This document shows positions 16,079 through 32,000 of a stretch of 32,000 nucleotides of DNA, in pieces (position 1 is the stretch's first letter; each line of letters begins with the position of its first letter). Where the stretch lies: the NCBI GenBank assembly GCA_021789895.1, contig JAJYIU010000010.1:1246-33245 (forward strand). Direction: 5' to 3'. A program made the position numbers and the translations under genes. The DNA is from Acidobacteriota bacterium. GTDB lineage: Bacteria > Acidobacteriota > Terriglobia > Terriglobales > SCQP01. The notes under the pieces were generated by a model. The model was not told the origin of the DNA. It ran no database searches and worked only from the letters and a program-made list of their open reading frames with translations.

Positions 16079-16268
16079 AGGGTTAGATCAGGCGGATGAT
16101 AGACAACCACAGCGGCGCCGGCCGCTCACAACTTCCAAAACGGGGGTTTTAACGGATAGCCGCGTCCACAACGCGCGGTATCTATGCGGAATTTCAGCTT
16201 AACCTTCCATGTCCGTCTTGTCAAGCGTTTGCGGGCGGATACCGCCTGGGGGCGTTGGACCAGGAAGG

Positions 16269-16568
16269 TCAGTCCAGATCGAGATCGCGCACGGGCGGAG
16301 GCGAGTCATCGTCGCGGGCGCGGCGCAATCCCTCTTCGAATTTTCGGGCGAGCCGCTCGCCGGCCTGGCGTTGATCGGAGCGAGCGCGTTCGAAGCGTTG
16401 TTCGCGCTCCTGCTGCTGGCGGCGCAGCAGGCTGGCCGCCTGGCCCAGATCGAGCTCCGGCGCGGGCTCGGCGCTGGCTTCCAGCCGCAGCGCGCCGCTT
16501 TCCAAATCCATTTCCAGGGCGGCGCCGCATGCGGGGCAATGCGCCCGTTTGGCCCGGGATCTTGTCAT
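16269..16568 (-). CDS. Small CxxC-containing protein of unknown function (99 aa)
   Basis: HCPACGAALEMDLESGALRLEA then a charged coiled-coil-like tail; ATG start at 16566-16568. Overlaps the 3' reading frame of the ybeY ORF. Confidence 0.45.
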   Translation of the reverse strand: MTRSRAKRAHCPACGAALEMDLESGALRLEASAEPAPELDLGQAASLLRRQQQEREQRFERARSDQRQAGERLARKFEEGLRRARDDDSPPPVRDLDLD

Positions 16569-17016
16569 GAGACGAGCTTATCACGGCGCGTGCGATCAGA
16601 CCGGAGGGTAAGCCTAGCCGCCGCCGCAGCCGGTCTTCACGCGCCGCCATTTCGCCTTGATCGGTCTCGTGATCCTCGCCGGCTAGGTGCAACAATCCAT
16701 GCAACGCCAGGATGCGCAATTCTATTTCGAAGGCATGCCCGCGAGCCCGCGCCTGGCGTGCGGCGGTTTCGCGCGACACGGCAATGTCGCCCAGGTACTC
16801 TGCTTCCCCGCTGGGAAAGGACAGCACATCAGTCGTGCGATCGCAACCGCGGTAAGTCCGGTTCCAACTCCGCATGCGGCGGTTGGAAACCAATGCAAAG
16901 CCGAAATCTCCCTGGATGCCGCAACGGCGGGGTAGGCGCCGCAGCCAGTCTTGCAAATCCGCCGGAAGAGGGACAGGCCTGGCGGCGCGTGAGCGGGCAG
17001 CCTCTCCGCCGGGCAT
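16306..17016 (-). CDS. ybeY: Endoribonuclease YbeY (rRNA maturation factor); ORF as tracked is longer at the C-terminus than expected
   Basis: DVLSFPSGE, GDIAVSRETA, LHGLLHLAGEDHETD metal-binding motif; start overlaps the stop of the upstream PhoH-like gene. Confidence 0.88.
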   Translation of the reverse strand: MPGGEAARSRAARPVPLPADLQDWLRRLPRRCGIQGDFGFALVSNRRMRSWNRTYRGCDRTTDVLSFPSGEAEYLGDIAVSRETAARQARARGHAFEIELRILALHGLLHLAGEDHETDQGEMAAREDRLRRRLGLPSGLIARAVISSSHDKIPGQTGALPRMRRRPGNGFGKRRAAAGSQRRARAGARSGPGGQPAAPPAAGARTTLRTRSLRSTPGRRAARPKIRRGIAPRPRR

Positions 17017-18074
17017 TAATGTTCCAATCCGGCCGGCTCCGGTTCGGCTTCCGGCGCGGGTATTCGCGGCGGAGGCGGGGATTCCGGCTCGGCTGCGGGC
17101 AAAAGCGAAAGTTGTTGCGCTGCCCGGAGTTCCGGGTTCTTCTCTTCCTCGTAAGCGCGAATGATCTGCTGCACCAGATTATGGCGCACGACGTCGTGTT
17201 CGTTCAGATAAACGATGCCAATGCCGGAAATCCCGTTCAGAATGCGTATGGCCTGCAGCAGTCCACTGGCCCGCCCGCTGGGCAGGTCGATCTGAGTGAT
17301 GTCGCCCGTGATGACAGTTTTGGAGCGGAAGCCCATGCGGGTGAGGAACATCTTCATTTGTTCCTGAGTGGTGTTTTGCGCCTCGTCCAGGATGATGAAG
17401 GCATCGTTCAAAGTGCGGCCGCGCATGAAGGCGATAGGCGCGATTTCGATGGTGTTGCGTTCCAGCAGGCGATCCACCTTTTCGGCGTCCAGCAGGTCAT
17501 AAAGCGCATCATAGAGAGGACGAAGGTAGGGATCGACCTTTTCCTGCAAGGTGCCGGGCAGAAAACCAAGACGCTCACCGGCTTCCACGGCTGGGCGCGC
17601 CAGAATGATGCGGTTGATTTCCTTATTCAACAGCGCGGAAACCGCCATCGCGACGGCAAGATAGGTTTTCCCTGTGCCCGCCGGTCCTACTCCAAAGACC
17701 ATATCCTGGCGGCTGATGGCTTCCAGGTACAGGCGCTGGTTCAACGACTTGGGCTGAACGGCTTTTTTACCAAAATTTCGCTGTTGGCCGCTGCGAGCCA
17801 GGCTCAGCAGGCTGAGGTTGCGGTCGGCGGCAATAACGCGCAGCAAATCGTGCAGATCGCCATTATCGAATTGCATGCCTTCCTGCCGAAGCTGGCGGTA
17901 GTCGCCGAGGATGGCTTCCATGCGGTCCAGACCCGAGGGGTCGCCCTGCAATTCAATGCCGTCGGCCAGCAATTGCACGGTAATGCCCAGGCTGGTTTCC
18001 AGCATGCGGAGATTTTCATCCAGCGGGCCAAACAGGACTTCGATATCACGGCTGTATTCAAGCGTTCGCTTCAT
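17016..18074 (-). CDS. phoH: PhoH-family ATPase (YbeZ-like)
   Basis: P-loop [80 protein letters not shown]; operon order with ybeY. Confidence 0.95.
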
Positions 18075-18269
18075 GAAACTTTACGGGGCAGGCTCGGAAT
18101 CGCGGGTCCTGGAAAAGCGTACATTTTTTTCAATCATATCATGCGGACTGGACGCAAGCGCCGATCGGGCGGCGCTTTTGACAGACCTGCAAGGAGACTT
18201 TAAACTAAGTAAGTTGGTAATTTTTAAGGAGCATTCGCCGGGAAAGTTGGAAATTCCGGCCACGACCGC

Positions 18270-30235: not shown

Positions 30236-30496
30236 TCAGTATCCGCGGCTGCGCTGTAAATCGCGCGCTTCGACGCGGGTTTCCCCGGGATTCAGTACGC
30301 CGCGTTGATGCTCGACTCCCCATGCCGTCAGCGTATCGGCGACCAGCGCGGCCATGATGCCTTCGCCGCGCCCATGTATAATGCGCAAGCCCAGGTGTTT
30401 CCGACGGGCTTGCTCCAGAGCCTCGCGCAAAAGATAGCCCACCCGGCCGGCGTCGGGCGGTACGCCATGCAAATCGAGTTCGTCGAATGCGGCCAT
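30236..30496 (-). CDS. Stand-alone Smr domain protein (86 aa)
   Basis: DELDLHGVPPDAGRVGYLLREALEQARRKHLGLRIIHGRGEGIMAALVADTL: Smr signature LDLHG...IIHGRGEG. Confidence 0.8.
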   Translation of the reverse strand: MAAFDELDLHGVPPDAGRVGYLLREALEQARRKHLGLRIIHGRGEGIMAALVADTLTAWGVEHQRGVLNPGETRVEARDLQRSRGY

Positions 30497-30624
30497 AGGC
30501 GGACGGCAGGAAACATATCAGTCTAGACAATTCTTCCCGCATAGCGGGAGAAAATGCTTGGCCAGATCGTCAGGCAATGCTAAAAAGGAGAATTGCCGGG
30601 ATGCCGGCCGAGGAGAATCCTGAT

Positions 30625-30918
30625 ATGGAAGCCTTAGGCATGGTAGAAACGAAAGGTCTGGTCGGCTCGATTGAAGCCGCCGATGCAATGGTCAAAGCCG
30701 CAAACGTAATCCTGATCGGGCGCGAATATATCGGCGCCGGCTATGTCACCGTCATGGTACGCGGCGATGTCGGCGCGGTGAAGGCCGCCACCGATGCCGG
30801 CGCGGCGGCGGCGCGGCGCGTGGGTGAATTGGTCAGCGTGCACGTGATTCCGCGGCCGCATTCGGAAGTCGAGCGTATCCTGCCCAATAAAGGTGCTGCC
30901 CCGGCGGAAAAGAAGTAA
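30625..30918 (+). CDS. BMC-domain hexameric shell protein (BMC-H, PduA/EutM-like)
   Basis: [87 protein letters not shown]; GAGGAG 9 nt upstream of ATG 30625. Confidence 0.95.
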
Positions 30919-31011
30919 TCCGTCGAGCTTTCCCGCGCGGAGTTGCGCGCCGGCCCAATGTGGACCGGCGGATGAAATTCGCGCTTTTTCACCTTACGTT
31001 TTACGTCCGGC

Positions 31012-32000
31012 ATGGATAAAGACCTCCAATCCATTCAAGAGGCCCGCGACTTGGCCGAACGCGCGCACCGCGCCTGCCTCGGCTTTCGCAGCTATTCCCA
31101 AGCCCAAGTTGACGCGATCGTGACCGCCATGGCCGCCGCGGCTGGCCAGCATGCGGAACGCTTGGCCCGGATGGCGGTGGAAGAAACCGGTTACGGACGG
31201 GCGGAAGACAAACTCCAGAAAAATCTGTTTGCTGCGCAGCGCGTGTTTTCCGCCATCCGCGATTTAAAAACGATTGGAATCGTCAACGAGAAAAAAGACG
31301 AGGGCATAATCGAAATTGCCACCTCGGTGGGGGTAGTGGCAGCCATTCTGCCTTCGACCAATCCCACCAGCACGGCGATTTACAAGATTCTGATCGCGAT
31401 CAAATCCGGCAATAGCATCGTAATCAGCCCGCATCCGTCGGCCATGCGGTGTATATGCGAAACGGTAGGCATCATGGCGCAGGCGGCCCGGGCCCAAGGC
31501 GCGCCTGAGGACCTGATCTGCTGCTTCGGGCAGCCTACCATGGCCGGCACCCAGGAATTGATGCGCCACCGGCGCACCAGTGTAATTCTTGCCACTGGCG
31601 GCATGGGTATCGTAAAGGCAGCCTATAGTTCCGGCAAGCCGGCGTTCGGAGTCGGTCCCGGCAATGTGCCCGCATTTATTGATCGCTCCGCCCGGTTGGA
31701 AAAAGCCGTTGCCGACGTGGTTGCCGGTAAAACCTTCGATTGGGGCACGATCTGCTCTTCCGAGCAGGCGCTGGTCGCTGAGCATGCATTGCGTGAACCG
31801 GTGTTGGCCGAGTTACGCAAACAGCGGGCGCAATTTTTAAGTCCGGAGGAAATTCAAAAGCTCGGCCGGGTGCTCATCCTGCCGGATTCATTTACCGTCA
31901 ACCCTCGCTGCGTGGGACAATCGCCGCAAAAGCTGGGCGAACTATCCGGCATCGCTGTGGCTCCGGATACTCGAGTTTTGATTGCCGAACTGCCGGGCAT
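31012..32000 (+). CDS. CoA-acylating-type aldehyde dehydrogenase, BMC-associated (3' truncated by window edge)
   Basis: Open frame ATG 31012 to window end, absent from ORF track: [34 protein letters not shown]...[44 protein letters not shown]...[13 protein letters not shown]...[16 protein letters not shown] (catalytic Cys), AdhE/EutE/PduP-like. Confidence 0.9.

Follow-up and report, generated by a model that had tools for sequence, protein, structure and literature searches.

A BMC-H and aldehyde dehydrogenase gene pair on an acidobacterial contig probably represents a satellite locus of the ACI microcompartment type

At the end of a 32,000-nucleotide stretch of an Acidobacteriota contig (JAJYIU010000010.1; the whole stretch is called the window here), a gene for a bacterial microcompartment (BMC) shell hexamer, BMC-H, is followed by a gene for a coenzyme A (CoA)-acylating aldehyde dehydrogenase (AldDH), which runs past the window end. 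We consider it probable, at roughly 80%, that this pair is an AldDH satellite locus of the ACI microcompartment type, a self-contained two-gene unit among unrelated housekeeping genes, because its arrangement matches that of the catalogued ACI satellite. An earlier note on this DNA had taken the pair for the left edge of a BMC locus and had left the type of that locus open. Correspondence to the catalogued satellite makes the type resolvable, and the DNA downstream of the pair in close relatives speaks against an edge. The features at issue are the following.

30625-30918, plus strand: BMC-H shell hexamer gene, 97 aa, PduA/EutM-like, with IPRPH motif (PF00936 and NCBIfam EutM)
30919-31011, plus strand: spacer between BMC-H and AldDH, 93 nt
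31012-32000, plus strand: gene for the predicted CoA-acylating AldDH, N-terminal 329 aa of an expected ~550-590 aa (PF00171, TIGR02518), open at the window end
31753-31755, plus strand: catalytic cysteine codon, Cys248 in the motif TICSSEQ, computed from the AldDH sequence

The two identities proposed in the earlier note are borne out, as are the 93-nt spacing (BMC-H closes with its stop codon at 30918, and AldDH opens with the ATG at 31012) and the absence of a signature enzyme from the window. BMC-H covers model positions 1-75 of 75 of the Pfam BMC family PF00936 (E 1.4e-28) and scores 131.8 bits against the NCBIfam EutM equivalog (cutoff 133). E. coli EutM aligns with it from residue 1, over 87 residues and with high identity, and both the edge lysine (DAMVK) and the IPRPH motif are kept, so that the protein has the canonical features of a BMC-H. 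The AldDH fragment matches Pfam Aldedh PF00171 (E 1e-22); among NCBIfam families it fits TIGR02518, acetylating acetaldehyde dehydrogenase, best (model positions 1-324, E 1e-131). The closest relative of the window locus is a 95-kb soil-metagenome contig (L001; related loci carry L numbers), whose full-length, 587-aa AldDH scores 599.8 bits against TIGR02518 (equivalog cutoff 620.1). The window AldDH is 80.9% identical to this orthologue over the visible 329 residues and 31.6% identical to E. coli EutE, and its catalytic cysteine is invariant in the orthologue alignment (C255 of protein P0002). Judged by these family matches, the second gene is a CoA-acylating AldDH resembling EutE and the N-terminal part of AdhE. 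In a protein search, the best match among those listed is 73% identical; the best matches listed are named Terriglobales, Acidiferrales or Bryobacteraceae, the nearest being Terriglobales.

The ACI type comprises 125 loci, exclusively from Acidobacteria (Sutter, Melnicki, Schulz, Woyke, Kerfeld 2021, Nat Commun 12:3809, PMC8217296). Its main locus encodes a class II aldolase (PF00596) that bears an encapsulation peptide at its C-terminus, a hydroxyacid dehydrogenase (PF00389/PF02826), one BMC-H, a BMC-P triplet and three proteins without known homologues (PMC8217296). The AldDH resides on a satellite locus, sometimes with a BMC-H, and a fourth BMC-P occasionally lies on the satellite as well (PMC8217296, Supplementary Data 2). 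Satellite BMC-H proteins mostly have standard interface motifs and fall into the classes H_fuchsia or H_royalpurple, and the enzyme, written AldDh in the catalogue, has an encapsulation peptide near its C-terminus followed by a domain of ~50 aa of unknown function (PMC8217296). The window pair shares several of these traits: its AldDH gene stands apart from genes for an aldolase, a hydroxyacid dehydrogenase or a BMC-P triplet and together with a BMC-H that has the standard IPRPH motif, and its AldDH orthologues end in a C-terminal encapsulation peptide followed by a ~50-aa domain. The best relatives of the pair are all from Acidobacteriota; for BMC-H, the best-matching loci in GTDB species representatives belong to metagenome-assembled genomes (MAGs) of this phylum (L005, at 93%, L006-L008, L013, L020 and L021). 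The pair also stands alone, with no other BMC gene in the ~30 kb of window DNA upstream of it (Pfam-based, with neither BMC-P nor a second BMC-H found) or within 10 kb of it in L001, L087, L088, L090 and L173. The catalogue counterpart differs in two respects, since the nearest relatives found here are named Terriglobales and the ~50-aa domain, unassigned in the catalogue, is linked here to EutQ.

How constant the pair is can be judged from related loci, which came from a BMC-H scan of GTDB species representatives (80 loci) and from a metagenome scan with an AldDH alignment (80 more). Among the 80 GTDB loci, a long AldDH directly follows BMC-H in every acidobacterial locus with readable DNA beyond BMC-H. 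Ninety-one distinct loci have an orthologous AldDH and enough upstream DNA, and in 90 of these BMC-H lies immediately upstream of AldDH on the same strand. A script had flagged five loci as lacking BMC-H; four were artefacts of overlapping stop-to-stop open reading frames (ORFs), and only L145 is truly without. The BMC-H protein is identical on L001-L004. The BMC-H gene of the window has 50 codons that are not the same as in L001, and all 50 differences are synonymous, with no amino-acid change; across the two genes, DNA divergence between genomes with an unchanged shell protein amounts to 17-25%. The pair is under purifying selection and is not a chance association. It is a remarkably constant unit across Acidobacteriota, a dominant soil phylum, and occurs also in lineages named Terriglobales, beyond the subdivisions from which ACI has mainly been reported.

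At least 63 loci have only the pair in the DNA available, 17 of them with at least 8 kb on both sides. On three Terriglobales MAG contigs (L087, L088 and L090), RecJ and a zf-UBP gene flank the pair, and no other BMC gene lies within 10 kb on either side; on a Bryobacteraceae contig (L173) the pair stands beside RecJ amid unrelated genes, with no other BMC-P or BMC-H within 10 kb on either side. In L001, four genes on the other strand come after the AldDH gene, namely those for an RRM protein, RecJ, a P-type ATPase and BacA, and no further BMC gene was found within 10 kb of the pair. The earlier note had held that a lack of further shell genes or enzymes downstream would leave BMC-H as an orphan. 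Such genes are indeed missing in every close relative that is readable downstream, yet the pair corresponds to a catalogued ACI satellite and is thus not a meaningless orphan. The locus itself is ordinary, a further instance of a satellite described in 2021, and there is no downstream left edge worth chasing.

The AldDH tail is of more interest. The window stops at AldDH residue 329, and the tail was read in orthologues; that of the window protein is expected to resemble theirs. In 29 aligned orthologues, the core extends to about residue 455 and is followed by a Pro/Ala-rich linker, an amphipathic helix, a second linker and a terminal domain of ~45 aa. The helix is of the encapsulation type (consensus roughly DRxxIAxIVDRFLxxR; LDRGEIRNIVDRFLAEKGL in L001), and the consensus of the terminal domain is xDFVxExDVRxAixxGxKIxigxKTIiTPsARDlGe. 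The L001 orthologue carries both elements. Among 89 database matches with a length of 520 aa or more, 23 have the tail, and these comprise all full-length proteins of the 12 closest matches. An encapsulation peptide on the AldDH, for which the earlier note had proposed to look, was thus found at the C-terminus of orthologues; the window fragment has none at its N-terminus, where the TIGR02518 alignment begins at residue 2 and leaves no room for an extension, and the C-terminal site lies beyond the window end. AlphaFold2 modelling of P0002 with a 20-sequence alignment gave a confident core, low-confidence linkers, a helix at residues 476-489 and a compact terminal domain at residues 520-567 (predicted local distance difference test 82-91), folded as strand-helix-strand-strand-helix-strand.

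Pfam and NCBIfam scans of the tail gave no match, and the relationship of the terminal domain to EutQ was seen only with a custom profile. This profile matches residues 8-39 of E. coli EutQ and, among the BMC loci retrieved, four Firmicute EutQ proteins, in the N-terminal part that does not belong to their cupin region (PF06249). Aligned by hhalign with EutQ N-termini, the domain gave a probability of 98.1% and an E value of 1.3e-13 over 38 columns. In Salmonella, EutQ residues 1-99 suffice to target green fluorescent protein to Eut compartments (Yang et al. 2025, Sci Adv, PMC12487888); deletion of residues 9-41 showed that helices H1/H2 mediate shell association, and helices H3/H4 bind the encapsulation peptides of EutC and EutE (PMC12487888). 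Residues ~4-42 of EutQ, that is, H1/H2 with the motif ITxxDVRxA...IITPxARDxA, align with the terminal ~45 aa of the AldDH. On this profile evidence, the terminal domain of the ACI AldDH is homologous to the H1/H2 segment at the EutQ N-terminus, and we infer that it would act as a shell anchor. The arrangements differ. EutQ is a separate linker protein, in which the module is N-terminal and precedes cargo-binding H3/H4 and a cupin acetate-kinase domain, whereas here the cargo enzyme, the AldDH, itself bears the module as a C-terminal fusion, behind an encapsulation-type helix. In the literature searched, no paper was found that connects the ~50-aa domain of the ACI AldDH with the EutQ N-terminus. 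The connection could be helpful for engineering cargo loading.

EutQ-N-terminal-like modules also occur on other proteins of Firmicute BMC loci, namely at the C-terminus of a PduL phosphotransacylase (PF06130; L035:5193-6215, plus strand) and at that of an unannotated 229-aa protein (L073:4759-5445, plus strand). Their distribution suggests a portable module, common to BMC cargo proteins and used alongside classical encapsulation peptides. A search of a representative library with the terminal domain gave 494 matches; the nine inspected of the top 150 were all C-terminal fragments of AldDHs, which says little on other fusions. A profile search of the PDB aligned the second half of the domain (KTIxTPAARDLG) weakly with a segment of branched-chain 2-oxoacid dehydrogenase E2 (GRKTLATPAVRxLAMENNI). 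These matches were below threshold (E 0.06-0.27), and homology to the E2 peripheral-subunit-binding domain was not adopted; the likeness, which is not significant, may stem from convergence on a helix motif or from very remote homology.

Many Bryobacteraceae-like homologues (P0029, P0039, P0047, P0111 and others; locus L173:10001-11638) have a second C-terminal architecture, in which two encapsulation-like helices (..VERYLAARG.. and ..AAEVVDRFLARRG..) surround a conserved cysteine motif, SCGCS, and the protein ends in GGYS or GGFG. It has no EutQ-like domain, and the gene still belongs to a BMC-H and AldDH pair beside RecJ. In some fragments, such as P0336, two helices and the terminal domain occur together.

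Together, these observations are compatible with a model in which BMC-H would supply a hexameric facet tile of the shell, as PduA and EutM do, while the AldDH, in the lumen, would convert aldehyde, CoA and NAD+ to acyl-CoA through its active-site cysteine. The aldehyde would come from the class II aldolase of a distant main locus and would probably be lactaldehyde or a similar sugar-derived aldehyde, the substrate being a conjecture. Loading and tethering of the enzyme could be brought about by the C-terminal encapsulation helix together with the EutQ-like terminal domain, which would serve as the enzyme's own shell anchor, and the cognate BMC-H tile would be expressed along with it. Co-expression of the enzyme with its docking tile is suggested by the position of BMC-H directly upstream of AldDH in all but one of the 91 loci. 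A carbohydrate-related role has been proposed for ACI by analogy, since a PF00596 aldolase also occurs in PVM and GRM5 (PMC8217296). The sugar-derived substrate considered in the earlier note thus has a precedent in the catalogue, which bases it on the class II aldolase of the main locus and not on the oxidoreductase and barrel genes near the pair to which the note had pointed.

The comparison with better-known systems has two sides. Like EutM with EutE and PduA with PduP, the pair combines a canonical BMC-H hexamer with a CoA-acylating AldDH of the kind that recycles inside a shell; EutE and PduP, however, have N-terminal encapsulation peptides and are encoded in large operons with signature enzymes, whereas the window AldDH has no N-terminal extension and belongs to a two-gene island. 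PVM and GRM5 serve fucose and rhamnose degradation via a class II aldolase, and by analogy the AldDH of ACI would oxidize an aldolase-derived aldehyde; the AldDH of PVM and GRM5, however, is encoded in the main locus, and at the window pair no aldolase is visible. As ACI is functionally uncharacterized, the tethering of its AldDH and the companion BMC-H offer a starting point for reconstitution.

Several points weigh against the assignment to ACI. Everything downstream of position 32000 in this genome, like the AldDH tail, is deduced from the sequences of relatives, and the presence of an ACI main locus with aldolase, hydroxyacid dehydrogenase and BMC-P triplet in this genome is presumed. Shell binding by the terminal domain is deduced from a distantly related system, to which the homology spans 38 columns. 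The assignment follows the description in the catalogue rather than the catalogue's hidden Markov models or its AldDh tree, which has an ACI/MIC3 clade. ACI has been found mainly in subdivisions 4 and 6, with Solibacterales/Ca. Solibacter and Bryobacterales (class Terriglobia) also listed (PMC8217296), whereas the nearest relatives here are named Terriglobales. In the portions of the catalogue tree files that were searched, there is no entry for Terriglobales, Acidobacteriaceae, Koribacter or Bryobacter, which is not decisive.

These taxonomic points, and the lack of a Terriglobales entry in the same portions of the catalogue files, could also be taken to mean that Terriglobales-like genomes have no main locus and no pentamer, and that the pair is an autonomous minimal system, an aldehyde-detoxifying scaffolded module. 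Such a two-gene "scaffolded enzyme" would have arisen from microcompartment parts and would do without a pentamer. Conservation and strong purification of the pair across several acidobacterial classes would fit such a system, and so would the AldDH orthologues, with their encapsulation-type helix and probable shell-binding domain, and the lack of BMC-P both in the ~30 kb of window DNA that precede the pair and, on the Terriglobales contigs, in the 10 kb to each side of it. However, this lack was seen around the pair only, and in the catalogue the AldDh satellite accompanies main loci, and Solibacterales and Bryobacterales, of the class Terriglobia, are counted among ACI. Moreover, where an acylating AldDH carries an encapsulation peptide, partner enzymes are normally required to recycle its cofactors in a closed shell. 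We therefore consider an autonomous system unlikely, and we are just as doubtful of its presumable form, in which BMC-H would assemble into sheets, tubes or an open or minimal shell on which the AldDH docks by its fused EutQ-type anchor. A BMC-P search with an alignment of Pyrinomonadaceae satellite proteins as query is uninformative for Terriglobales: the 120 matches listed are all close to the query, and the named taxa among them are Pyrinomonadaceae, Blastocatellia or unclassified Acidobacteria.

The reading as the left edge of a full metabolosome locus, with BMC-P, BMC-T and enzymes to follow just past position 32000, appears very improbable to us. The window does end inside AldDH, and there are larger versions of the locus: a single BMC-P follows directly after AldDH in 14 Pyrinomonadaceae-type loci, and a second BMC-H lies 0.4-7 kb downstream of AldDH in ~18 loci of this type. 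These extended versions stop after one BMC-P or BMC-H, however, and are flanked by unrelated genes, as in L011, which is bounded by IMPDH and a RodZ-like gene on one side and by VWA and type II secretion system genes on the other. No aldolase, phosphotransacylase or BMC-P beyond the single downstream one was found in any related flank read, and all Terriglobia-type relatives, including the closest, have the pair only. The Pyrinomonadaceae-type satellites also encode a small zinc-ribbon protein of 137 aa between AldDH and the second BMC-H (L011:12213-12626, plus strand).

Decay of an EUT or PDU operon to a remnant of EutM and EutE, to which the near-cutoff EutM score of BMC-H and the EUT-associated best family of the AldDH might point, is hardly credible and is rejected as contradicted by the conservation data, since no pseudogenization is visible (only synonymous BMC-H differences from L001, catalytic cysteine intact), the pair persists in nearly all loci, the AldDH has a lineage-specific C-terminal tail never seen on EutE and differs from E. 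coli EutE at more than two thirds of positions, and no flank contains eutBC or pduCDE; the EUT signature genes eutB and eutC were likewise missing from the Pfam lists for the window and all related flanks.

Upstream of the pair in the window are genes for a rhodanese-domain protein, an SLT transglycosylase, a signal peptidase, RNase III, a TonB-type outer-membrane barrel, an HMG-CoA-lyase-like protein, a carboxyltransferase and Rho, besides a DNA ligase and a TPR gene that were assigned from the L001 gene calls. Nearer to the pair are gamma-glutamyltranspeptidase (GGT), arginase, a class II aminoacyl-tRNA synthetase (tRNA-synt_2, "AsnRS") and a TIM barrel resembling xylose isomerase; nearest are a GMC oxidoreductase with its gluconate-2-dehydrogenase-subunit-3-like partner (G2DH3), followed by a minus-strand Smr-domain gene. 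The order GGT-AsnRS-arginase-GMC-G2DH3-Smr upstream of the pair is common to the window and L001. L085, a near-identical 5.3-kb Logan contig, ends inside BMC-H. Of the Acidobacteriota loci screened, only L001 and L085 have GMC/G2DH3 and Smr next to the pair, and even L001 lacks the TIM barrel. The link between the pair and the GMC/G2DH3 genes and sugar-isomerase-like barrel that the earlier note had raised is therefore abandoned, and a functional tie to GMC/G2DH3, the TIM barrel or Smr was rejected. The TIM-barrel gene (PF01261; 24533-25372) lies between GGT and AsnRS, and its absence from the otherwise syntenic L001 marks an insertion or deletion specific to one lineage. Its NCBIfam match to CbiR, a cobamide-remodelling phosphodiesterase, is weak and below threshold. 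Further upstream in the window, a 664-aa ORF (16209-18203, plus strand) has no Pfam match at E <= 1e-4.

One further feature precedes BMC-H.

30497-30624, no strand assigned: divergent intergenic region, presumed promoter, between the Smr-domain gene (minus strand, 30236-30496) and BMC-H

A sigma-70 consensus scan of 30497-30624 found no promoter-like site, and promoter function is a supposition from the position of the region. There are three in-frame ATGs for BMC-H, at 30577, 30601 and 30625, and GGAG Shine-Dalgarno-like motifs lie upstream of the latter two. The start equivalent to 30601 is used by the Logan gene call on L085; we prefer 30625 because orthologues are called at 93-98 aa and because the EutM alignment begins at residue 1. 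In the spacer, a GC-rich hairpin is followed by a U-run (TTTTT) at ~30935-30990, with a terminator-like site at 30968-30982. A terminator or attenuator was rejected here, as the fold is about as stable as shuffled sequences (z 0.17) and the sequence is not conserved in L001, L090 and L005.

In Terriglobia-type genomes, RecJ (DHH/DHHA1/RecJ_OB) recurs directly beside the pair or close to it, upstream or downstream and on either strand. Its positions are as follows.

L001:12821-14335, minus strand: RecJ
L087:7956-9635, plus strand: RecJ
L090:7203-8945, plus strand: RecJ
L173:12525-14273, plus strand: RecJ
L054 and L063, ~12.4-14.4 kb: RecJ

We regard this adjacency as a probable old synteny anchor and not as the sign of a functional link. 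In several MAGs (L007:10334-12218, L008:10397-12434 and L039:10500-12267; several MFD isolates), AldDH is split over two to four overlapping frames, which most likely reflects assembly frameshifts and not pseudogenes.

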